From: an uncultured Patescibacteria group bacterium
GTDB taxonomy: Bacteria; Patescibacteriota; Microgenomatia; UBA1400; PJMF01
Direction: 5' to 3'
NCBI GenBank assembly: GCA_905478415.1
Contig: CAJQIG010000004.1
Span: 11,523-75,522 of the forward strand
Length of the DNA: 64,000 nucleotides
The notes below the pieces were generated by a model. It saw nothing but the letters and a program-made list of their open reading frames with translations. It made no database searches and was not told where the DNA came from. The translations under genes and the position numbers were made by a program. Below are positions 30,138-57,461 of this stretch, piece by piece; position 1 is the first letter of the stretch; each line of letters starts with the position of its first letter.

Positions 30138-32009
30138 TTAGTTTGTAGGTTTTGATCGCAGGTACACCCGACGAACACCAGCTGATGCTGACTGCTCTTT
30201 AAAGAGCTCAATTGGGCTAATTTCTCCTGTAGAATTTACGTGAGGGCCACCACAAAATTCTTTGGAAATCCAGTCAGTTTCAGGATCATTTCCAATTGTG
30301 TAAACTGTCACTTCATCCGGATATTTTTCAATAAAGAAAGCAATAGCACCTGACTTTAAAGCCTCTTCTTTGTCCATAATCTTGACTGTCATTGGCAAAT
30401 CAGCAGCAATCCACTCATTTACTTGTGCTTCTACGGCAGTTTTCTCTTCGGTTGTCAGTGCTGCAGGATGAGAAAAGTCAAATCGCAACCGTTTTTCGGT
30501 AATGTTCGAACCTTTTTGTTGGACATGTTCTCCAAGTATTTTTCGTAACGCCGCATGTAATAAATGAGTAGCCGTGTGATACTGAGTTGTTTTCTCACTA
30601 TGATCTGCCAATCCACCTTTAAATTTAGCGCTCGAGGCTTGGCGTGATGCATCAGCATGAGCTGTTTTGGCTGCTTGGAACGATGCAACCGAAATAGTTA
30701 TTCCTTTCTCAGCCGCGATTTCTTGCGTCAGTTCGAACGGAAAACCGTAGGTTTCATATAAGTAAAAAGCAGTCTCACCGGTAATTTCTGTAACTTTTTC
30801 TATCTCTCGCAAACCGGTTGCCAGCGCTTTCTGGAACTTTTGTTCTTCTGCTTTGAAAGCTGCTTGAATACGAACAAGGTTCTCAGTTACTTGCGGATAC
30901 GCTTCTTCATACATCTGGGCAACTGCTGTTGCCACATCAGCAATAAATGGCTTTTCGATACCAATCATCTTGCCGAATCGAATTGCCCGTCGTAGTAATC
31001 GGCGTGAGAAGTAGCCCTGTTCTTTATTCGAAGGATAGACCCCATCTGTAGCTAACATAGTTGCAGCTTTAATGTGATCAGCAATAACTCTAAACGAACG
31101 ATTTGTCTCACTGTCAGAACCGTATTTTTTACCTGAAAGCGTCTCAATTTGAGAAATAATTGGTGTAAATAAACCTGTTTCAAACACATCTTGTGTGTTA
31201 CCCAAAACCGCCAAAATACGTTCGAATCCTCCACCAAAATCGACATTTTTTTGAGCAAGTTCAGTAAAAGTTCCATCCGGTTGCTTTTGGTACTGCATAA
31301 AAACTGAGTTGCCAATTTCAAGGAACCGGCCACAGTCACAATTTACGTGACAAGGTACATCTTTGAACTCATTGTTTTCGTGGAGTTTTTTTTCAGCTCC
31401 AAAATCATAAAAGACTTCACTGTCTGGACCACCTGGTTCACCTGCGGGCATAGTACTTGGAGCGCCTGCACGTGACCACCAGTTACCGTCACCATAGTAG
31501 AAAATTCGCCCACCTTGTAGACCATTTTTGGCAGCGTCATCAATCACTTCTGCTGAAGTACCAACTGATGCAAATAATTTTTTCCAAATTTCAGGAGTTT
31601 CTGTATCTTTTGGAACTCCAATGGCTTCATTACCTTCATACGCAGTCACGTAAAGCTTTTGAGGATCAATGCCGAGTTCCTCTGTCAGGAAAGCAAAGAA
31701 CCAACCCAGTTGTTCTTCTTTAAAATAATCACCCAGAGACCAATTGCCCAACATTTCAAAAAATGTTGTGTGTCGGTTGTCTCCAACTTCTTCGATATCT
31801 TGTGAGCGAAAACATTTTTGGCTATCGGCAATACGAGTACCCTTTGGATGTTCTTCTCCCAGTAGATACTGGATCATTGGCTGCATACCAGAACCAGTAA
31901 ACAAAGTGGTTGGATCATTCTCTGGAACAAGCGCAGCTGACGGCACAATGGCGTGGCCTTGTTTTTCAAAAAAATCTAAATACTTTTGACGTAGTTGATT
32001 TGGTGTCAT
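30138..32009 (-). CDS. alaS: Alanine--tRNA ligase, short form lacking the C-terminal C-Ala/DHHA1 domain
   Basis: 623 aa from MTPNQLRQKYLDFF (RBS AAAGGA 6 nt upstream); class II catalytic core, editing-domain HxxxH (HTATHLLHAAL) and CGGPHV motifs; ends ~250 aa before canonical bacterial AlaRS would. Confidence 0.9.
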   Translation of the reverse strand: MTPNQLRQKYLDFFEKQGHAIVPSAALVPENDPTTLFTGSGMQPMIQYLLGEEHPKGTRIADSQKCFRSQDIEEVGDNRHTTFFEMLGNWSLGDYFKEEQLGWFFAFLTEELGIDPQKLYVTAYEGNEAIGVPKDTETPEIWKKLFASVGTSAEVIDDAAKNGLQGGRIFYYGDGNWWSRAGAPSTMPAGEPGGPDSEVFYDFGAEKKLHENNEFKDVPCHVNCDCGRFLEIGNSVFMQYQKQPDGTFTELAQKNVDFGGGFERILAVLGNTQDVFETGLFTPIISQIETLSGKKYGSDSETNRSFRVIADHIKAATMLATDGVYPSNKEQGYFSRRLLRRAIRFGKMIGIEKPFIADVATAVAQMYEEAYPQVTENLVRIQAAFKAEEQKFQKALATGLREIEKVTEITGETAFYLYETYGFPFELTQEIAAEKGITISVASFQAAKTAHADASRQASSAKFKGGLADHSEKTTQYHTATHLLHAALRKILGEHVQQKGSNITEKRLRFDFSHPAALTTEEKTAVEAQVNEWIAADLPMTVKIMDKEEALKSGAIAFFIEKYPDEVTVYTIGNDPETDWISKEFCGGPHVNSTGEISPIELFKEQSASAGVRRVYLRSKPTN

Positions 32010-32039
32010 ACTTTTTCCTTTGGGGAGCGGTTTTTTCAT

Positions 32040-32325
32040 AAAAAAACCCGCCTCTTCCCACAACAATTGTTACGGACAAGGACGAGCAAACTCGCGGTAC
32101 CACCTTGCTTTTTTTCTACAGTTACCTCTAGAAAACTCAGCAACTACCTTTCGGTAGTTTCCCCTTTTTACGGTGGGCATCCGGATCTTTTTACTCATCT
32201 TTAGATGATTCAAAGACCAGCTCGCAGGTGGCTCAAGGAAGACGTAGTACTCGGTTCTCAGCATTCCGAATTCTCTGTATCTACAGAATCATTCCTTTAT
32301 TCCTGTTCATCGCTGTTATTCGACT
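32040..32325 (-). promoter_or_regulatory. T-box riboswitch leader of alaS (candidate Ala GCU specifier)
   Basis: Minus strand contains AAGCAAGGTGGTACCGCGAG (T-box core GGTGGTACCGCG) ~70 nt before the alaS RBS, followed by GAGGCGGGTTTTTTT (terminator 3' arm plus U-tract); candidate specifier loop cGGAAUGCUGAGAAccg ~170 nt upstream; AGUA-type motifs present. Confidence 0.7.
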
Positions 32326-32330
32326 GTGGG

Positions 32331-32340
32331 AGTATTGTAT
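32331..32340 (-). promoter_or_regulatory. Extended -10 element (TGaTACAAT) that may start the alaS T-box leader
   Basis: Minus strand ...gtttgtTTTTGATACAATactccc; no clear -35. Confidence 0.35.
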
Positions 32341-32354
32341 CAAAAACAAACAAA

Positions 32355-39298: not shown

Positions 39299-40072
39299 CT
39301 ACTTTTGGGTTTTTTGCGTATCGGGTGCATAACTCACCGCTCCATCCGGCAACCGTCGCACCCAATCTCCAGAGCGCTGCTCTTCAACAATGTGCGCAAT
39401 ACTTCCTGCCACTCGAGCCACACCAAATAAGGCATTCCCCGCTAATGGGTCAATCTTCATGGCCATAAGTAATGCTGCTAAAGCCCCATCTATATTAATC
39501 ACCAGTGGTTTCAACAACTCTGCTTCTAATACACTAGCAATCTGCTTAGCGATATTTATGTAGTGAATATCGAGTCCTGCATTTCGAGCTAAAATAAATA
39601 ATTGTTCGGTTCGAGGATCCTTTTTTGTATAGACTGGGTGTCCAAACCCTGGAATACGTTTTTTGTCTGCACGGTAGGTTTTAACCAACCATGTTGCCCC
39701 AGCTTCTGTATCTTCTGAGTACTCATCGACTGCCTTCAACACTTCCATTGCTCCCGTAATGGCTCCACCATGATAAGGACCAAGTGCTAACAAAGATGAG
39801 GCCATACACGTTAACACATCATTTCCAGAAGAGGCTACTACTCGAGGTACAAAACCACTAGCCGGATCAATACCATGGTCAATGGCTCCAACTAGAAGTG
39901 CATTGAGCACTTTTTCTTCGGCTGCTGTTGGCTTTTTGCCGGTTACAGACAAAAAGAGAGTAGAAACAAAGTTTGCTTCGCCAATGAGGGTGGTGAGCGG
40001 AATACCGCGTAATTCGAGGTCGTGCTGACCGTGGCCGCTAACACTGGTTTTGAAATCTAATTTTTGTGACAT
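39299..40072 (-). CDS. Citrate-synthase-family short protein, citryl-CoA lyase (Ccl)-like
   Basis: 257 aa; citrate synthase signature GFGHPVYTKKDPR; lacks the N-terminal half of full-length citrate synthase. Confidence 0.65.
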   Translation of the reverse strand: MSQKLDFKTSVSGHGQHDLELRGIPLTTLIGEANFVSTLFLSVTGKKPTAAEEKVLNALLVGAIDHGIDPASGFVPRVVASSGNDVLTCMASSLLALGPYHGGAITGAMEVLKAVDEYSEDTEAGATWLVKTYRADKKRIPGFGHPVYTKKDPRTEQLFILARNAGLDIHYINIAKQIASVLEAELLKPLVINIDGALAALLMAMKIDPLAGNALFGVARVAGSIAHIVEEQRSGDWVRRLPDGAVSYAPDTQKTQK

Positions 40073-40076
40073 ATAC

Positions 40077-40985
40077 CTATAGTTGTACTACTTTTTTAAG
40101 CTGTTTGACAATCTCTTCTGGATTCTGAGCAAGATGAACTCCTACCGCTGACAATGCATCAATCTTACTTTTTCGAGTTCCAAATTGAGCATCAACAATT
40201 GCGCCTGCATGTCCAAAAGCTATTCCTTTTGGCAATGTCTCGGCAAAAATGCCTGATATGTAAGCAATAACTGGTTTCGTAAAGTGTCGTGATTTAAGAG
40301 CTGTTGCCAAATCTTCTTCGGCACTGCCCCCAATTTCTCCAATAATTACTAAAGCTTTTGTCTGAACGTCTGCTTCTAATTCTGGAAGGACATCAGCAAA
40401 AGTAGTTCCAATGACTCTGTCTCCTCCAATTCCAGCTACGATTGTTTGTGGAATTTGAGCAGCTGTCAGTAAGGACGCTACGGTATTTGCCATCCCACCA
40501 CTTTTTGAAATGAGGGCCACACCTGGGCTATTAGCTTTAGGAAATAAGAAGTTCTCAAACACACCACCACCTAATGACCCAAGCGCGGTCCCCGTCGTTA
40601 CAACCCCAACTGAGCTTGGTCCCAACATTCGAGCATTTTTTTGTTTAACTAACTCTAACAAATCGACACTATCTCGTGTAGGAACTTGTTCGGCAATAAT
40701 ATGGATAAGGGAAATACCAGCTTTTACAGCTTCGGTAGCAGCTACTTTCACAAACTTGGGTGGCACATAGATACTACTGACAGTAGTATCCGGGTGAGCT
40801 TGCAGTGCCTCTGCAACTGAGTCATAGACAGGAACTCCTTCCACAACTTCACCTCCATGTCCTGGAGAGACTCCAGCAAGAACTTGAGCTCCTCCGAGCT
40901 GCATCCATGTAGCAGCACGTCGCCCCTCTTTCCCCGTAATTCCTTGAATCAAGTACTTAGTCTGGATAGAAAGTGAAAACAGCAT
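40077..40985 (-). CDS. Succinyl-CoA synthetase alpha-like subunit (CcsB / ACL small-subunit N-domain-like)
   Basis: 302 aa; CoA-binding GITGKEG, phosphohistidine loop AFGHAGAIVD. Confidence 0.8.
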   Translation of the reverse strand: MLFSLSIQTKYLIQGITGKEGRRAATWMQLGGAQVLAGVSPGHGGEVVEGVPVYDSVAEALQAHPDTTVSSIYVPPKFVKVAATEAVKAGISLIHIIAEQVPTRDSVDLLELVKQKNARMLGPSSVGVVTTGTALGSLGGGVFENFLFPKANSPGVALISKSGGMANTVASLLTAAQIPQTIVAGIGGDRVIGTTFADVLPELEADVQTKALVIIGEIGGSAEEDLATALKSRHFTKPVIAYISGIFAETLPKGIAFGHAGAIVDAQFGTRKSKIDALSAVGVHLAQNPEEIVKQLKKVVQL

Positions 40986-40986
40986 G

Positions 40987-42198
40987 TTATACCCTCTCCT
41001 TTTGAGAGTGCTGTCGCTTTACCAATGCCGTTTTGAGGGCAGGGATAGTATCAAGAATCGGCACTGTTGGACCAAGCAACGTCACTGCAAATCGAGTAGG
41101 GTCGAGCCTGGTTCTCACCATCTCAAAAGCTTCTTCCCACCGTGGTCCTCCACGACGAATAATCACTGGGAACTGCTGTTCCCAATTAGAAGCAAGTAAT
41201 CCATCAACAACACCCGAGAGCGTCTCAAAAATATCCGTAAAACTAGCATTACTGCCCACTACATAGAGGGCTTCAAGTGTTTGGATTGAAAGGACAAGCT
41301 CTGTGAGTTCCCGAACTTTGTCTCTGCTCGGGTTACCCGAATACTCAGTATAGTTTGCTGGCTGTAGTCCGTGTTCCAATAATCCATCCATTGCTAAAGC
41401 CGATGCCCCGCCACCTGAAGCCAATACACCAATGGTCCCACCAGGAAACTCAAAAAAACTTTCTCCTGCTACGCCCCGTTCATCCTGTCTACTTATAGCT
41501 AGTGCTGCTTGCTCTAAGGGGGTGCGTCTCTTTTCACCAGCAGCCCGTACTAAGCGAGATGCATTCCATTCTGGATGCCTAAAGCGGGCAGCATCTTCTA
41601 ACTCAATTTTGGCATCAAGACAAACATACCCAGAAGAAGTAACTCCTACGGGATTAATTTCAAGCAAGAGCGCATCATTTTCAATGAATGCTTGCCATAT
41701 TTTTTTAACTAATGGTAAAAATTTTGGATTCGCCTCGAATACTGTCGGCCCAGTCACTACTGAAAGCGGTATCTCTTGCAGAGTCGAGCCTCGCTCGTCC
41801 ATGCCCGCACCACCTTCTGATGAATACCTACAAATGAGCGAGCGCAAACTGGTGTCATAGCCAAGGCTTATGTACACTTGACTCTCAAACTCACACTTCT
41901 CTTCAATTAAAAGTTCATCTATTGGGTTCCCGTAGGCGTCTGACTTTGCGAAAAGTTGGGCTGCCTTTTCACTCAACTCTTCTGCAGAATCTGCAAACAA
42001 TATCAAACCAGAGAGACCTCGATTGCCATGTAAAACCTGGGCTTTAAGTACTACTGGGTACGAAAAGGGGACTGCCATGCTCGTAGAAAGATCCTCTTTT
42101 GTGAGTAGCACTCCGGCAGGAGTCAATAACGTGTAAGTTTGAAGTATTTTTTTGGCCTCAAATTCGGTCAATAACATAGTCACTATAGTAACATACAA
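40987..42198 (-). CDS. Succinyl-CoA synthetase beta-like ATP-grasp subunit (CcsA / AclA-like); probable real start ATG at 42177
   Basis: 403 aa (ORF begins at TTG); MLLTEFEAKKILQTY and VVLKAQVLHGNRG resemble the SucC N-terminus and ATP-grasp. Confidence 0.75.
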   Translation of the reverse strand: MYVTIVTMLLTEFEAKKILQTYTLLTPAGVLLTKEDLSTSMAVPFSYPVVLKAQVLHGNRGLSGLILFADSAEELSEKAAQLFAKSDAYGNPIDELLIEEKCEFESQVYISLGYDTSLRSLICRYSSEGGAGMDERGSTLQEIPLSVVTGPTVFEANPKFLPLVKKIWQAFIENDALLLEINPVGVTSSGYVCLDAKIELEDAARFRHPEWNASRLVRAAGEKRRTPLEQAALAISRQDERGVAGESFFEFPGGTIGVLASGGGASALAMDGLLEHGLQPANYTEYSGNPSRDKVRELTELVLSIQTLEALYVVGSNASFTDIFETLSGVVDGLLASNWEQQFPVIIRRGGPRWEEAFEMVRTRLDPTRFAVTLLGPTVPILDTIPALKTALVKRQHSQKERV

Positions 42199-44917: not shown

Positions 44918-46174
44918 TTAGAACCAAAGGTCCAAGAAAAGGAAGGCTACAATGCCGGCAACAACGGACATACTCATTCCCCATGCCAGCAACCAATTAA
45001 ATAGTCTTTTTTGCTGAGCTTTATCTTCGACTGCTGCTAGTGAAAGCGCCCCCAGTGTCGAAAGTGGACTCACATCCACCATATGAGAACCAACGGCTAC
45101 GGCAATGACCATAGGTATAATCTCGCTAATTCCCATCTTAGTAGCAAGACCCGGTACCAACGGTACAAATGCCGGTAATACTACTCCAGAAGAAGAACTG
45201 TATGCCGAAACGGCTCCACTCACAAAAGCCAACACTGCATTAATAAAATCTGGACTGGTTACAGTAGCGATAAAGGTTGTAGCCAAGTCTAGACCACCAG
45301 TTTTTTCCATTAAATTGATCAAGACTGCAATCCCCGTCACCATTTGAATAGTTGACCAAGGTACTGTCTCAATCACTTCTTCTTCTTCAGCAAGACCTAA
45401 GAAGAACATGCCCACCGCTGTTGATACAGCCATAATCACCAGCGGAACTTCCGCAATAATCACACCAGAAATCAAAAGCATAATCGCAATAAGTGAGATC
45501 TTTTGTTTCTTTTTCAACACTGGTTTCTTGGCTTTAATAGTTACGACTTTAGGCTTGTATCTTCTCTTTCTACTTCTAAATAAGAACAGACCATAAGCAA
45601 GTAAAGCTGAAAGTGACTGCAGTACAGCCGAAGCTCCAAAAACAATCCAGATTAATTGTGTATCAAGTTGAATCTGGTGTAGTAATCCCAAGGCCACGAC
45701 ACCTGTTGGAGAAAAAGGAGAAAAAGCACCAGCGTTCGCTCCAGTACATAACATAATCGCAATAATAAGCGGAGAAATCCCATGTTTTTTAGCTAAGTTC
45801 ATCGTCATTGGTGCAAGGAGTGCTACTGCCGCAATATTACCTGGACCGAGAGCCGAAAGTAAAAAGGACAACGCAAATACTAATAGGGGTAGTAACAATG
45901 CTTTTCCTCGAATCAAATTAATAGCATAGTGAGTCACAACATCGAGCGTGCCATTTTTTTGAGCAATGCCAAAAACCATACTCATACTCACCAGTAGAAT
46001 AAATAACTGAGCAGGAAATCCTGCTAAAATTGTGTTTGTTGAAAAATCAGCAAGATACACTCCAATTCCAAGGGCGGCAGCTAATGCTAACAAGCCGGGA
46101 TTAAGCTTTGGTAAAAAGCAACTTAGAATAACTATTACAAGTAACGCAGAAAGCGAAACAATAGCGGTGAACAT
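44918..46174 (-). CDS. Ion-transporter-superfamily permease (ArsB/NhaD/DASS/CitMHS-like), two-repeat topology
   Basis: 418 aa; ~12 TM helices in two halves split by a basic loop RSRKRRYKPK...; hairpin-like GANAGAFSPFSPTG and GSHMVDVSPLSTLG motifs. Confidence 0.5.
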   Translation of the reverse strand: MFTAIVSLSALLVIVILSCFLPKLNPGLLALAAALGIGVYLADFSTNTILAGFPAQLFILLVSMSMVFGIAQKNGTLDVVTHYAINLIRGKALLLPLLVFALSFLLSALGPGNIAAVALLAPMTMNLAKKHGISPLIIAIMLCTGANAGAFSPFSPTGVVALGLLHQIQLDTQLIWIVFGASAVLQSLSALLAYGLFLFRSRKRRYKPKVVTIKAKKPVLKKKQKISLIAIMLLISGVIIAEVPLVIMAVSTAVGMFFLGLAEEEEVIETVPWSTIQMVTGIAVLINLMEKTGGLDLATTFIATVTSPDFINAVLAFVSGAVSAYSSSSGVVLPAFVPLVPGLATKMGISEIIPMVIAVAVGSHMVDVSPLSTLGALSLAAVEDKAQQKRLFNWLLAWGMSMSVVAGIVAFLFLDLWF

Positions 46175-51926: not shown

Positions 51927-53678
51927 CTAATTCTCTTCCCGTTGTATTTCTGAAAGTATCTCGTTAACGAAGAATGGTCTGCCCTCGTTTTTAAGTACGA
52001 TATGATCTGGCGTAAAACCAGATTCCATACGGACAAGTTTGGCCAGCTGACCAGTTCCATTATTCTCCACAAAAACAACTTTTTGAGCTGTCTGAGCGAG
52101 CGCCTCCAAACGTTCAGTCTTGAGTGGAAACAGGTATTCGTAATGGAGATACGAGCATTTTTTAGAACCACCAGTTTGTTGATACAGTTGTATGGCATCA
52201 AGAACGGTAAGCTTCACACTTCCCCAACCAACATATAAAACATCACAGGCTTCTTCACCAAAAAGTTCTGGTTCTGGTAGCGCTGCAGCGATAGTATCGT
52301 GCTTTCGCATTCGTCGCTCAAAAATTTCTTTAGATGGTCCAGAATCCTCAGTCAAAGAACCATCACCCAAATGTTCATCACTATTAGCATCAAAAGTAGG
52401 AGCACACTGTCCTGGCAACCAACGTGGGGTCACACCAGATTCAGTATTCTTATACCGATCCATGTTTGAAAGTGAACCAAGTTCGCTTTCAGGTACTAGT
52501 CCACGAGAAATCTCTATTGAAGCCGGAAGATCTTTAAGATGAAAGTGGGACTCGGCAATCTGCTTTTCAGTTAACAAAATAACTGGAATTTGATATTCTT
52601 CCGAGAGATTAAGTGCTACCTGAGTTAAGGTAAAACAAGAACTTGGATCACTTGCAGCCAAAACCACCTTTGGATACTCACCATGACCAGAGAAAACTGC
52701 AAGTAATAAATCAGCAGCATTTGTCCAAGTAGGCAAACCGGTTGCTGGACCTGGACGTTGAGCAACTACACAAACAAATGGTGTTTCAGTCATACCAGCT
52801 AGAGAAACCGTTTCAGTCATCAAGTCAAAGCCACCGCCAGACGTTCCACACATGGCTCGAGTGCCTGCAAACGAAGAACCAACGGTCATCTGGGCAACCG
52901 AAATTTCATCTTCAATTTGCTTAACCAGCATTCCAGTTTGGTGAGAAATACTCGCCAAGTAACTCAAAATAGAACTTGAAGGTGTCATTGGATAGGCATA
53001 GTAAGCCCTAACACCACCCGCTACAGCACCGAGGGCTATGGCTTGATTTCCTCCGATAATAATGTCATCAACTAAATCTGAGTTTAAAGTAAAAGGTAAC
53101 TCAACTGGGATAAGACCAGCATCCTCAAATGCTTTACCAGCTTCGATCATGGCAATATTTGGTTCGATAACATCAGGTTTTTTCTCAAACTGTTTTCGGA
53201 CTACTTGTAGTAGTGGCTCTGAAGGAAGACCTAAAAGCTTCCACAGTACTCCCAATAAAAATGTATTGGCCATCAAAGGGTGTCCACCCGCTTCTTTTAC
53301 CAATTGTTGTGCAGGGACAAAAATCAAGGAAATATTTTTTTCGGTCAAAATTGCTTGTTGTTGCTCACTCACTTGCAATCCAATAACAGAGTGAATAACA
53401 GTACCGTTAGGTGCTACAGAGGGCAAATAAGCGGTGAAAGCACTGACACTCAGAACCAAAAGAATGTCACAGTGTTCTGCTGCCGAGTTGAGCAGCTGAT
53501 CAGAAAAATCAACTTGAAATGATGCGAATCCTCCCTTTATAAGAGATGGATATTCTCGATAGCCAAAACTGTAGAGACCAGACTCTTTGAGGGACTTGGA
53601 AATAGTATCCCCAACGGAATTAATACCCTGTCCAGATGCACCGGACACTTTAACGACAAATCGATTGTGAATATGCAT
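51927..53678 (-). CDS. 2-oxoacid:ferredoxin oxidoreductase alpha subunit with fused N-terminal gamma domain
   Basis: 583 aa; N-terminal gamma-like GASGQG region then the alpha pyrimidine-binding domain; two-subunit OFOR architecture. Confidence 0.85.
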   Translation of the reverse strand: MHIHNRFVVKVSGASGQGINSVGDTISKSLKESGLYSFGYREYPSLIKGGFASFQVDFSDQLLNSAAEHCDILLVLSVSAFTAYLPSVAPNGTVIHSVIGLQVSEQQQAILTEKNISLIFVPAQQLVKEAGGHPLMANTFLLGVLWKLLGLPSEPLLQVVRKQFEKKPDVIEPNIAMIEAGKAFEDAGLIPVELPFTLNSDLVDDIIIGGNQAIALGAVAGGVRAYYAYPMTPSSSILSYLASISHQTGMLVKQIEDEISVAQMTVGSSFAGTRAMCGTSGGGFDLMTETVSLAGMTETPFVCVVAQRPGPATGLPTWTNAADLLLAVFSGHGEYPKVVLAASDPSSCFTLTQVALNLSEEYQIPVILLTEKQIAESHFHLKDLPASIEISRGLVPESELGSLSNMDRYKNTESGVTPRWLPGQCAPTFDANSDEHLGDGSLTEDSGPSKEIFERRMRKHDTIAAALPEPELFGEEACDVLYVGWGSVKLTVLDAIQLYQQTGGSKKCSYLHYEYLFPLKTERLEALAQTAQKVVFVENNGTGQLAKLVRMESGFTPDHIVLKNEGRPFFVNEILSEIQREEN

Positions 53679-53714
53679 GTCTACACTGTATCAAAAAAAT
53701 CTGATATATGAAAA

Positions 53715-55925
53715 CTAAAATTCTGAGAGAATAACCTTACCATCAACAGCATACGCTTCATCTTTGGTAACAATCACTGGATTAATCTCTATTTCAGCAA
53801 AGAAAGGTAGCTTCGTAACCAAATCGGTGAGTTGAGCCATCAGGTGATACAAACGTTCAAGAGCTAATGATTGCCCACCTCGATACCCCGTTAACAGCGC
53901 ATACGCTTTTGACTCCTCGACCAACTTTTTAATATCTCTAGCAGTTACTGGTAACACATGGATGTTATGATCAGAAATGAGCTCAACCAAAGTGCCGCCA
54001 GCTCCAAACATCAGCACATTCCCAAACTGTGGAGTTCGTTTAATACCGACAATAACTTCGACCCCATTCTCAATTTGAGACTGCATCTGCAGTTGAGTTG
54101 TTTTCCTAATACCCACTGGCAAATCAGTCATCCGTCCAATCAGTTGTTGTGAAGCAGCCTCAAGTTGTTTCTTACCCCTAATACCAGTGATTACACCACT
54201 GACTTCTGTCTTGTGAAGTAACTCAGGAGCACTGAGTTTTAAAACCACAGGGTACCCATGAATCCCAGCGAATCGTTTTGCTTGCTCCAGGTTAGCAACT
54301 ACCGTACTTGGAGGAGTCGCAATATCCCAATCGTCAAACAGCTCCTGAATTTTACTGCTTTCTAGATACCGTTCTCCTGCAACTAATCTACTTCGAATGT
54401 ATTCAAGGTGATGATGCTGAGCTGAGGGCACAACGGGGGCTACTTCAAGCGGTGTCTGTTTCTTGGCTGCCTCTTTCTGCCACTCTTTCCACCACCACAT
54501 TTTTCCAAGTGCACCGATTGCTCTTTCTGGATAGCTGAAAAAAGGAATTTTGTATTTGCTTAAAACTTTCTCACCACTACTAATTAATTGGCCTCCCATA
54601 AAGGAGCAAAAAATTGGTTTTCGATACTTTTGAGAAAGTCTGCCAATTACTAACGCTGTCTTTTCAATCTCGGTCATAACTTGGGGAGTTAAAATAACCA
54701 TAATTGCATCAACTTTATCTTCCTCTAAAAGCAACCTCAAAGCTTTTTCGTATCGATCAGAAAGTGCATCACCCAACACATCAACTGGATTCACGATACT
54801 TGCAGCCCGCGGTAAATGGCGAGTAAGTAGCTCTTTCGTTTCTTTTGAAAGCGGTGCCATTTCAAGTCCTGCTTCTATAACTGCATCACTACTCACCACC
54901 GCTGGTCCACCTGCATTTGATAAAATAGCAATCCGCTTGCCTTCAGGAGCATCACTCCAAGAGAAAGCTTTGGCTAAATCAAACATGTCTTCGATAGTGT
55001 GACAACGAATAACTCCTGCTTGTGTAAATGCTTGAGAGAGCACAACATCATCACCAGCAATCGCTCCGGTATGAGACTGCATGGCTTTTTGAGCAGCACT
55101 CGATTTTCCTGGTTTTAAAATGAATAGTGGATTATTCTTGGCCACTTGTGTAGCAAGTTCAATAAACCTGGATCCATCAGTAAGTGACTCCAAATACATT
55201 CCAATGGGATGATATGAAGAACTATCTAGCCTCTGTGCATCCCGAACCTTTTCTGCTGGATTTTCGAGCCAATACTCCAAAAAATCATTTTCTGTGAGTA
55301 CCGCTTTATTACCAAGGGTAATAAAATCTAGAAACCCAAGCTCATGATGCTCCGCCCAATCAAAAATACTTGTGGCGATCGCTCCAGACTGAGAAATAAA
55401 GTGCATTCGTCCAGCCCGTGAAATACCCTGTCCAAAAGTTGCGTTCAACTTTTTAGGTGTGTACACATGTCCTAAGCAATTTGGTCCTAAAATACTCAGA
55501 CCAAATTCTTTGGCTACAGCCACTAGCTCTGCCTCAAGAAGAGCACCTTCTCGACCAGTTTCTTTAAATCCAGCTGAAATAATAACTACGGCTTTCGTAC
55601 CTTTCTGTCCAATTTCTCTGACGACATCAAGCACAAACTGGGCTGGAATAGCGATAATTGCTAAATCTGGAATTTGAGGAATCTGAGCATAGTGTGAATA
55701 CACTGGCAACCCAGCAATGGTAGTTTCATGTCCATTAACTGGATAGACAACACCCTTATACCCACCTTCAATAATGTTTTTTAGTAAAATAGCTCCAAGC
55801 TTGTGAGAATTGCTGGATGCCCCAACGACTGCAATGGAACGTGGTGCTAGTAGTTTGTTGATTTCTGTATTCATGGGCAGAATTAAAATGAGCTCCTCTA
55901 TACCTTTCAGTATAAAGGAGCCCAA
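53715..55925 (-). CDS. Acetyl-CoA synthetase (ADP-forming), fused alpha/beta (ACD); start probably the Met at 55874
   Basis: 736 aa; N-terminal CoA-binding (SIAVVGAS), succinyl-CoA-synthetase-like ligase-CoA region, C-terminal ATP-grasp. Confidence 0.85.
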   Translation of the reverse strand: MGSFILKGIEELILILPMNTEINKLLAPRSIAVVGASSNSHKLGAILLKNIIEGGYKGVVYPVNGHETTIAGLPVYSHYAQIPQIPDLAIIAIPAQFVLDVVREIGQKGTKAVVIISAGFKETGREGALLEAELVAVAKEFGLSILGPNCLGHVYTPKKLNATFGQGISRAGRMHFISQSGAIATSIFDWAEHHELGFLDFITLGNKAVLTENDFLEYWLENPAEKVRDAQRLDSSSYHPIGMYLESLTDGSRFIELATQVAKNNPLFILKPGKSSAAQKAMQSHTGAIAGDDVVLSQAFTQAGVIRCHTIEDMFDLAKAFSWSDAPEGKRIAILSNAGGPAVVSSDAVIEAGLEMAPLSKETKELLTRHLPRAASIVNPVDVLGDALSDRYEKALRLLLEEDKVDAIMVILTPQVMTEIEKTALVIGRLSQKYRKPIFCSFMGGQLISSGEKVLSKYKIPFFSYPERAIGALGKMWWWKEWQKEAAKKQTPLEVAPVVPSAQHHHLEYIRSRLVAGERYLESSKIQELFDDWDIATPPSTVVANLEQAKRFAGIHGYPVVLKLSAPELLHKTEVSGVITGIRGKKQLEAASQQLIGRMTDLPVGIRKTTQLQMQSQIENGVEVIVGIKRTPQFGNVLMFGAGGTLVELISDHNIHVLPVTARDIKKLVEESKAYALLTGYRGGQSLALERLYHLMAQLTDLVTKLPFFAEIEINPVIVTKDEAYAVDGKVILSEF

Positions 55926-55966: not shown

Positions 55967-56398
55967 TTATTGTGCAGTTTGTACTAGTCCGATCATCATT
56001 GTCTCTAAAAATCCTTGGGCTTTCTCCGAGTGAGGACCAGAACCATTTGGTCGATCAAAAAATGCTTCAGTTACTTCAGTTCCACAATTTTGGGCAATGA
56101 CATCACCACCTGGGTGTTTTTGAGCAGTGACATACTCAGAAACATCGTACACGGAGTCATTAACAACCAACCAACAATCTTCAGCAGTTTTATGAGTGGA
56201 AACTTCTTCTAAAGAATAGCGAGCCATCATAGCTTCAGGCTGAGTTGCAGACTCTTCAGCCCCCATAGCCTCAACCTCAGTTGTTTGGGACTCTTCCATC
56301 ATGGCTTCATCTTGAGAAGTCTCTTGTTTTTCTCCTAAAGTGCATCCTGCTAAAACTATGCTGCATACACCAACTACAGCCAACTGTTTGATATTCAT
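55967..56398 (-). CDS. Cytochrome b5-like haem-binding domain lipoprotein
   Basis: ~143 aa from MNIKQL; lipobox LAGC; b5 motifs HKTAEDCWLVVNDSVYDVSEYVTAQKHPGG. Confidence 0.65.
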   Translation of the reverse strand: MNIKQLAVVGVCSIVLAGCTLGEKQETSQDEAMMEESQTTEVEAMGAEESATQPEAMMARYSLEEVSTHKTAEDCWLVVNDSVYDVSEYVTAQKHPGGDVIAQNCGTEVTEAFFDRPNGSGPHSEKAQGFLETMMIGLVQTAQ

Positions 56399-56543
56399 AG
56401 GAACCTTTCTCCAAGAACAAATCTTGTATTTATACAATCAGGGTGCTGAAAGTGTAGCAGACTTTACATTATTGAACAATAAAACATGCCTAATAGGCTC
56501 CAGCTTGACAGCTATGCCCCTTTCCATTCAGAATGAAGATACT

Positions 56544-57461
56544 ATGAAAAACTCAAACAAGATTGCCATTATTGGTTGTGGAAATGTCGGTATGACAGCC
56601 GCCTACTCGATTTTACATAAAGGTAATGTTGACGAGCTGGTCCTCTTTGGCCGACATAAAGAAGCACTCATCGGAGAAAAACTTGACCTCGAACATGGCC
56701 TCAGTTTTTTATCTACAGCCAAGATTATTGCCTCGGACGACTATGCTGATTTGGCAGGTAGTGACGTTATTGTGTATACGGCTGGTGCAGCGCAAAAACC
56801 TGGGGAGACAAGACTTGACCTGACCAACAAGAATGTAGCTATTATAGAAAGCATCATCCCGCAAGTTGTCAAACATGCACCAGATGCAGTCGTCCTGGTT
56901 GTCGCCAACCCCGTTGATATCCTCACCTATAAAGCCTACTTAGCTGCTGGTTTACCAAAAGGTCGTATCTTTGGATCTGGTACGACTCTTGATACTGCCC
57001 GTTTTAGATTTCATTTATCAGAATTTATGAATGTCCATCCACGCAGTATTCATGCCTATGTACTTGGTGAACATGGTGACCACTCATTTCCATCACTTTC
57101 AAGTGCAAATATTGGCGGACAAAACCTCAAAGACTTTCCAAACTTTACTGAAGAGAAAGCTTTAAAAGCCTATCAAAAAGCTCGAGCTGCTGCTTATAAA
57201 ATCATTGAATCTAAGGGAGCAACCTACTACGCTATTGGTGCTGATATTTCCAGCATTGTCTCAACTATCCTCAAGGATAAGCGATCTGTCTTGGCTGTCT
57301 CAATCCCACTGCACAACTACTATGGACAAAGCGGCATTGCTTTAAGTGTGCCATGTATTGTCGGTAGAAATGGAGTCGAACATGTACTTAAAGCCAATCT
57401 TTCGAAACATGAGCAAAAACTACTCGAAAGAGCTGCTACTGCACTCAAAAGCTTTCTCTAA
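56544..57461 (+). CDS. ldh: L-lactate dehydrogenase
   Basis: ~305 aa from MKNSNKIAIIGCGNVG (Rossmann GxGxxG); substrate-loop Gln (AGAAQKPGETRLDL); catalytic His in GEHGDHSFP. Confidence 0.88.
   Translation: MKNSNKIAIIGCGNVGMTAAYSILHKGNVDELVLFGRHKEALIGEKLDLEHGLSFLSTAKIIASDDYADLAGSDVIVYTAGAAQKPGETRLDLTNKNVAIIESIIPQVVKHAPDAVVLVVANPVDILTYKAYLAAGLPKGRIFGSGTTLDTARFRFHLSEFMNVHPRSIHAYVLGEHGDHSFPSLSSANIGGQNLKDFPNFTEEKALKAYQKARAAAYKIIESKGATYYAIGADISSIVSTILKDKRSVLAVSIPLHNYYGQSGIALSVPCIVGRNGVEHVLKANLSKHEQKLLERAATALKSFL

Follow-up and report, generated by a model that had tools for sequence, protein, structure and literature searches.

The alaS locus and its leader

The DNA analyzed here, called the window below, is a 64-kb stretch of contig CAJQIG010000004.1 from an uncultured bacterium of the Patescibacteria group. 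On its minus strand an open reading frame (ORF) that begins with an ATG at 32009 and ends at 30138 encodes alanyl-tRNA synthetase (AlaRS), the product of alaS, and the gene was called identically on the source contig. The 345-nt gap between this ATG and the stop (32355) of a small YtxH-like ORF is filled by a leader. We examined this leader, which is very probably a functional T-box riboswitch of class I, the type that attenuates transcription, so that, judging from its sequence and from analogy with known T-boxes, the expression of alaS would depend on the charging of tRNA-Ala.

Rfam release 15 was scanned over all 64 kb at the curated threshold, and a second, permissive pass was made at E≤0.01. 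The leader matched RF00230, the T-box leader family, at 32319..32075 on the minus strand with 99.9 bits (gathering score 93, E 8.1e-21). The match runs end to end over model positions 1-219 without truncation, and no Rfam match besides RF00230 was found in the window, also at E≤0.01. The first-pass annotation of this DNA had proposed a T-box riboswitch on alaS and had named beforehand an Rfam scan and a folding of the alternative structures as checks. Both turned out in its favour: the full-length match lies above the gathering score, Stem I folds consistently, the antiterminator and the terminator exclude each other, and the gene downstream encodes AlaRS.

The T-box core which that annotation had read in the alaS leader is present as well. 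The sequence AAGCAAGGTGGTACCGCGAG lies on the minus strand at 32110..32091, and its 12-nt core GGTGGTACCGCG, at 32104..32093, occurs in one copy in the window, 95 nt upstream of alaS. By itself the core motif is weak evidence: the chance expectation for the 12-mer with at most one mismatch is 0.18, and at least one match appeared in 16 of 100 shuffles. It is the full covariance model that settles the identity decisively. In comparison with the consensus AGGGUGGNACCGCG there is one difference, A for G at the second base, and this change is offset by the 3′ strand, which reads CCUU versus CCCU in the consensus.

Related loci were obtained by searching AlaRS against one genome per GTDB species, which gave 80 loci. 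A core containing UGGNACC was sought with at most three mismatches within 700 nt upstream of alaS, and it was found in 11 loci of the candidate phyla radiation (CPR; L001-4, 6, 7, 9, 10, 17, 20 and 23) and in one Chloroflexi locus (L058).

Read from the base upward, Stem I of the window leader consists of a K-turn (GCGAUGAA/CGAGC), helix P1 (CAGG/CCUG), the Specifier Loop, an AG bulge and a distal loop hairpin (Table 1). The K-turn, GCGAUGAA...CGAGC, aligns with the consensus gCgaUGAa...GAGc and carries the GA motif at the base of Stem I; its NGA/NGA and GC/GC elements are kept in 10 of 10 leaders, and helix P1 is fully paired in 10 of 10, through eight different sequences. The AG bulge and the distal loop are aligned to their counterparts in the family and would form the platform on which the tRNA elbow stacks. 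Stems II and III and the IIA/B pseudoknot likewise align to RF00230, with helices and pseudoknot partners that covary, and in the window the loop CCC of the IIB pseudoknot pairs with a downstream GGG(G). AGUA-type motifs had also been reported for this leader, and they exist, for example GAGUAA within Stem II. Between the IIA/B pseudoknot and Stem III sits an extra hairpin of 7 bp with a GAAA loop, and a hairpin of unrelated sequence stands at the equivalent site in 8 of the 11 CPR leaders. A simple terminator scan also flags this extra hairpin, yet without an adjoining U-run.

Table 1. Features of the alaS locus and of its leader in window coordinates
Feature	Position	Strand	Basis
alaS (AlaRS, 623 aa)	30138..32009	-	Pfam PF01411 4e-125, PF07973 1e-13
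Post-U-run segment AAAAAACCGCUCCCCA, complementary to terminator 3′ arm and U-run	32021..32036	-	fold -14.1 kcal/mol, not significant alone
Intrinsic terminator: hairpin 32046..32087 and U-run 32040..32046	32040..32087	-	-17.4 kcal/mol, z -2.7
T-box leader, RF00230 model positions 1-219	32075..32319	-	Rfam match
Antiterminator	32076..32108	-	folds alone to -10.9 kcal/mol with canonical bulge
Stem III	32112..32136	-	Rfam alignment
Extra hairpin AACUACC-GAAA-GGUAGUU	32142..32159	-	insertion versus Rfam consensus in cmscan alignment
Stem IIA (CGG/CCG) and IIB pseudoknot	32161..32184	-	Rfam alignment and pseudoknot covariation
Stem II with GAAU/GAGUAA internal loop (S-turn-like)	32184..32218	-	Rfam alignment
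Stem I	32220..32313	-	Rfam alignment and exact string positions
Specifier codon GCC (Ala), then conserved purine A32229	32230..32232	-	Rfam alignment
Stem I distal loop hairpin (predicted elbow platform)	32250..32270	-	Rfam alignment
Stem I distal loop cGGAAUGCUGAGAAccg	32252..32268	-	aligns to distal-loop positions of RF00230
AG bulge AGAGA	32271..32278	-	aligns to consensus; conserved in relatives
Extended -10 TGATACAAT (TG + TACAAT)	32334..32342	-	sequence read

Antiterminator, terminator and promoter

The 14-nt T-box sequence AAGGUGGUACCGCG (32106..32093) contributes a 7-nt bulge, UGGUACC, to the antiterminator. The UGGU of this bulge, at 32102..32099, is complementary to the ACCA at the 3′ end of tRNA, its final U facing the discriminator A73; because tRNA-Ala carries A73, the variable base of UGGN fits it. 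The 3′ strand of the antiterminator, CUCGUCCUU, is used again as the 5′ arm of the terminator, and since the strand is common to both, the two structures are mutually exclusive. When folded separately, the terminator (-17.4 kcal/mol) is more stable than the antiterminator (-10.9 kcal/mol). At the base of the terminator 3′ arm lies GAGGCGGG (32054..32047), followed by seven U at 32046..32040 and then by the Shine-Dalgarno sequence AAGGA at about 32020..32016, approximately 8 nt upstream of the ATG, which is the order of terminator arm, U-run and alaS ribosome binding site given in the first-pass annotation. The U-run ends 31 nt ahead of the start codon. An equivalent pair of antiterminator and terminator with a run of 6-8 U is present in 12 of 12 related leaders.

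The extended -10 element that had been placed near 32335 is indeed found there, as TGATACAAT at 32342..32334, and would set the transcription start near 32327. The -35 of the window leader is poor (GTGTGT). Each of ten related leaders has a -10-like TAnAnT 18-27 nt upstream of the start of the T-box model, and four have a TTGACA -35.

The segment that follows the U-run raises the question of whether control is mainly or additionally translational, as in actinobacterial T-boxes, with this segment and the terminator arm governing the access to the alaS ribosome binding site. The pyrimidine-rich stretch 32036..32021 is complementary to the purine-rich 3′ arm of the terminator and stands directly upstream of the Shine-Dalgarno sequence, so that it could form a hairpin in the read-through mRNA. 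Comparable complementarity after the U-run is better than in shuffles in six relatives (L001, L017, L023, L009, L004 and L006). In the window, however, it gives 0.12 against shuffles, which is not significant, and it is absent in 6 of 13 leaders; its sequences differ from leader to leader, and it is missing where the spacer before alaS is long. Moreover, the Shine-Dalgarno sequence lies outside both alternative helices, a strong hairpin followed by seven U is typical of intrinsic termination, and Stem I has its full length, unlike the truncated form of translational T-boxes. We consider translational control improbable for this leader, and transcription attenuation remains the reading that we prefer.

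An AUG at 32037..32039, right after the U-run, shares the reading frame of alaS and, if used, would extend the protein by MKKPLPKGKS. It has no Shine-Dalgarno sequence and is unconserved in relatives, and probably it is not used as a start.

Related leaders, covariation and distribution

Nine CPR leaders gave RF00230 scores of 72-99 bits with E from 1e-13 to 1e-20 (L001, 98.9; L017, 97.5; L023, 87.4; L009, 80.8; L020, 78.2; L004, 78.1; L003, 76.9; L002, 73.8; L006, 72.3), while L010 reached 31.7 bits and the Chloroflexi leader L058 reached 36.6 bits. The leader of L007 (1887..2010) had no RF00230 match, which we attribute to an insertion of about 55 nt in its antiterminator loop. According to their sequences, the leaders of most relatives are true T-boxes below the gathering score. 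The terminator of L007 is very strong. The distance from the T-box to alaS is 190-350 nt in L002, L003, L020 and L007, and the spacer of L003 holds a repeated CUUUCGGACCCGACCU motif.

At up to three mismatches no credible core was seen in the other 66 loci, which include other CPR classes and Elusimicrobia; a match with three mismatches in L071 (Elusimicrobia) was judged to be due to chance. Nine close relatives without the core were also scanned with Rfam at high sensitivity, and none gave a T-box.

Plain MAFFT alignments of the leaders set the middle and inner helices of Stem I out of register and were replaced by an alignment of 219 columns in the register of the model, transcribed from the cmscan alignments of 10 leaders, in which the pairs of the Rfam consensus were counted. 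Standard pairs occupied 91.1% of cells, versus 37-43% when the partners were slid by 1-3 columns. Changes on both sides of a pair, that is compensatory ones, occurred in 31 of 47 pairs, and the covariation score was 0.61 versus 0.20 in shuffles, none of 500 shuffles reaching the observed values. Covariation reaches nearly every pair in the helix next to the K-turn, in Stem II and in Stem III, with compensatory changes in 6 of 7 pairs of Stem II and 7 of 7 pairs of Stem III; helix A1 and Stem IIA show no variation. Outside the nested model, the IIA/B pseudoknot covaries too (CCC/GGG, UUC/GGA, UUC/GAA, UUCA/UGAA, UCA/UGA and CAGCA/UGCUG). Read from these sequences, the pattern is that of a structure kept by selection and not of a relic.

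A neighbour-joining tree of AlaRS was built with ten T-box-bearing CPR loci, L020 and L023 being left out as partial matches. All ten fall into one crown clade. Four members of this clade without a T-box are interspersed among them (L011, L008 and L005+L012), and every deeper CPR branch is without it. L005 and L011 retain the gene order, with alaS beginning only about 35-70 nt after the upstream gene. The simplest view is one origin at the base of the subclade and then a few losses; the origin may have been either a horizontal gain or a retention from an older ancestor.

Such a patchy distribution, with four crown-clade members that lost or never had the T-box while synteny was kept, means that the element is dispensable, and it invites the idea that a T-box once acquired horizontally is decaying in this leader and no longer regulates alaS. 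Against decay, all functional elements are intact in the window leader, compensatory changes keep every helix among leaders whose AlaRS are only 64-73% identical, and no variation is seen in the specifier, the T-box bulge or the U-run. Purifying selection would be expected to leave such a pattern, and we regard the relic as very improbable in comparison with a T-box still in use.

Host lineage

The GC content of the window is 39-43%. The best AlaRS relatives are 73-59% identical, and the top 64, apart from the Chloroflexi locus L058, are metagenome-assembled genomes (MAGs) of the Patescibacteria type, several of which are named Candidatus Pacebacteria, Paceibacterota or Patescibacteria group. 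After the CPR come Elusimicrobia with about 40% identity and one Chloroflexi MAG with 41%. The NCBI taxonomy places these organisms in phylum Minisyncoccota, kingdom Bacillati. Metagenome scaffolds from ENA SOLA22-1, which look marine and reach 584 kb, encode an identical AlaRS. The protein has the class II core (tRNA-synt_2c) and the editing/SAD domain (tRNA_SAD) without the C-terminal C-Ala domain. The AlaRS of the CPR relatives all match over the same ~615-620 residues, and a short AlaRS without C-Ala seems to be typical of the group.

By its AlaRS the genome belongs to Patescibacteria/CPR, near "Pacebacteria", and not to a Firmicutes-related lineage. The hint at such a lineage which the first-pass annotation took from the T-box must be given up, while its description of a reduced, low-GC genome was fair. 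The T-box had also been thought useful for taxonomy; being limited in CPR to one small clade, it is no marker of the phylum.

The data are metagenomic and several related records bear implausible names such as 'Pseudomonadales', so it may be asked whether the contig was mis-assigned and comes in fact from Firmicutes or Chloroflexi, where a T-box is expected. This is hardly credible in view of the 64 best AlaRS relatives, which, apart from L058, are Patescibacteria-type MAGs from 73% identity downward, of an AlaRS lacking C-Ala like those of the CPR relatives, of the syntenic position that this leader keeps in 11 independent CPR MAGs, and of an identical alaS on contigs of up to 584 kb. We continue to treat the host as a CPR bacterium.

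Many records of MAGs that are Patescibacteria by AlaRS similarity and isolate name (e.g., HK-STAS-PATE-16) bear the titles 'Pseudomonadales bacterium', 'Gammaproteobacteria' or 'Bdellovibrionales', among them L001, L002, L004-L007, L009 and L010. These titles look like taxonomic mislabels in public records.

Specifier codon and cognate tRNA

The specifier position of a T-box is the 3′ side of the internal loop right above the K-turn helix, and here the window reads GA-GCC-A-CCUG. GCC with the following purine is invariant in 10 of 10 related leaders, while the preceding bases vary (UUGA, UUGG, UUAA, UUUG, UUAG, UCUG). Because the codon is aligned with the canonical position and stays invariant among variable neighbours, we take GCC at 32232..32230 as the true specifier on sequence grounds; the codon, which is followed by the purine A32229, stands for alanine and so matches the regulated gene, alaS. 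Among T-box specifiers the NNC type, to which GCC belongs, is the commonest with 57.6% (TBDB preprint).

The first-pass annotation had instead chosen GCU in the loop cGGAAUGCUGAGAAccg, an alanine codon that is indeed located in a hairpin loop; since this loop corresponds to the distal loop of Stem I in the RF00230 alignment and relatives carry GGU or AGU in place of the codon, while GCC and its purine are invariant at the canonical position, that choice was rejected with next to no probability left to it.

ARAGORN was run on 60 of the 80 related alaS loci (L001-L060); tRNA genes were found there, none of them for tRNA-Ala. The genome itself has no tRNA or transfer-messenger RNA gene in about 84 kb (the window with L081, L082 and L084), a stretch that includes rpoBC and the str, S10, spc and alpha ribosomal-protein operons.

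Proposed mechanism

With GCC as specifier, the class I T-box may be pictured as follows. Transcription would begin at the extended -10 promoter. Stem I would fold and display GCC in the Specifier Loop, and its AG bulge and distal loop would stack on the tRNA elbow. A tRNA-Ala, most simply the GGC isoacceptor, would dock through pairing of its anticodon with the specifier, assisted by Stem II and the IIA/B pseudoknot. If this tRNA is uncharged, its free A73-C-C-A would pair with UGGU and stabilise the weaker antiterminator, allowing read-through into alaS. If it is charged, the pairing would be blocked, the stronger terminator (32087..32046 with its seven U) would take the CUCGUCCUU strand, and transcription would stop before alaS. 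What is observed comprises the elements, helices that exclude each other, an alaS gene downstream, and conservation and covariation; the binding of tRNA, the discrimination of its charging state and the regulatory outcome would follow established T-box biology.

Several points weigh against this picture. The RF00230 score of the window leader is 7 bits over the gathering score, and most relatives are under it. In the alignment used for covariation, the leaders had been fitted to the structure with the covariance model. In the Specifier Loop about 5 nt are missing relative to the Rfam consensus, three deleted on the 5′ side and two on the 3′ side, and the canonical S-turn may be altered in this shortened loop. 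Neither in the window nor in the roughly 20 kb that adjoin it, some 10 kb on either side, did ARAGORN detect a tRNA gene, and the presence of a tRNA-Ala(GGC) with A73 in the genome is assumed. Finally, some transcripts may originate upstream, because the upstream gene stops 13 nt before the -10 element without a terminator between.

Other genes of the window

Other synthetase genes without a T-box were sought as an internal control, and there were none among the large ORFs of the window. Three adjacent genes on the minus strand (39299..42198) have the Pfam domains ATP-grasp_2/Citrate_bind, CoA_binding/Succ_CoA_lig/Ligase_CoA and Citrate_synt, and by domain content the set resembles an ATP-citrate lyase or, alternatively, a citryl-CoA synthetase with a lyase. 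Near them (44918..46174, 51927..55925 and 56340..57461) are genes for a citrate/dicarboxylate transporter, pyruvate:ferredoxin oxidoreductase, ADP-forming acetyl-CoA synthetase and malate/lactate dehydrogenase. The central carbon module in the window is richer than usually expected for a CPR genome.

Comparison with known T-boxes

How does the leader compare with T-boxes of other phyla? With the class I T-boxes of Bacillota (RF00230; B. subtilis tyrS and glyQS, alaS leaders of Firmicutes) it shares the K-turn, a Specifier Loop with a codon plus purine, the AG bulge, the distal loop, Stem II, the IIA/B pseudoknot, Stem III, the 14-nt T-box sequence with its UGGN bulge, an antiterminator opposed to an intrinsic terminator, and a regulated synthetase that matches the specifier. 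It differs from them in its CPR host, in the shorter Specifier Loop and in the extra hairpin before Stem III, and an A-U pair replaces the consensus G-C in its helix A1. The specifier of B. subtilis alaS is GCU, versus GCC in the window leader. None of the deviations from consensus removes a defining feature of the T-box.

The Chloroflexota leader L058 (Oscillochloris sp. MAG) also precedes alaS; its codon at the aligned specifier position is GCC, its bulge reads UGGU, and its terminator is followed by a U-run. It differs in being very GC-rich, in its low model score, in an AlaRS of 41% identity and in lacking the extra hairpin of the CPR type. The likeness seen between it and the CPR leaders is one of shared parts. 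Chloroflexota are among the phyla where T-boxes are considered ancestral (TBDB preprint), and they belong to the same NCBI kingdom, Bacillati, as the CPR.

Class II translational T-boxes, such as those of actinobacterial ileS, have in common with the window leader the sensing of tRNA by specifier and T-box bulge. In the TBDB preprint they are described as having a truncated Stem I, a specifier in the terminal loop and a sequestered Shine-Dalgarno sequence instead of termination. The window leader is not of this type, having a full-length Stem I, a terminator with seven U and a Shine-Dalgarno sequence outside the alternative helices.

The T-box is known from Firmicutes/Bacillota, Actinobacteria, Chloroflexi and Deinococcus-Thermus, with sporadic transfer elsewhere (TBDB preprint). 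A search of one literature library found no paper tying T-boxes to Patescibacteria, CPR, Saccharibacteria or Parcubacteria. The leader is thus a member of a known family, with a standard, textbook mechanism, in a lineage for which we located no report of T-boxes. Matches to RF00230 above 93 bits are likely to be in databases already through automated annotation. The clade-level picture of CPR T-boxes seems to be undescribed; routine pipelines miss most CPR leaders, because these score 72-87 bits versus the gathering score of 93.

We propose tentatively, at somewhat under even chances, that the window leader and its eleven relatives are the first T-boxes described in Patescibacteria/CPR, that they go back to a single horizontal gain in one Pacebacteria-like subclade or to retention from the common ancestor of Bacillati, followed by several losses, and that they acquired additions specific to the clade (the extra hairpin, the compact Specifier Loop and the complement after the terminator). 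If this is true, then some ultra-small, host-dependent bacteria still monitor the charging of tRNA-Ala directly, and the T-box would be an RNA character bearing on the position of CPR relative to Chloroflexota and Bacillota.

The T-box mechanism is already well understood and is unchanged by the CPR case, the value of which lies in distribution. A T-box gained or lost with the gene order fixed provides a clean presence/absence system, and the extra hairpin, the shortened Specifier Loop and the 55-nt antiterminator insertion in L007 are natural variants for structural work. For the biology of these organisms, the leader would mean that at least some reduced-genome symbionts keep direct control of a synthetase by tRNA charging.

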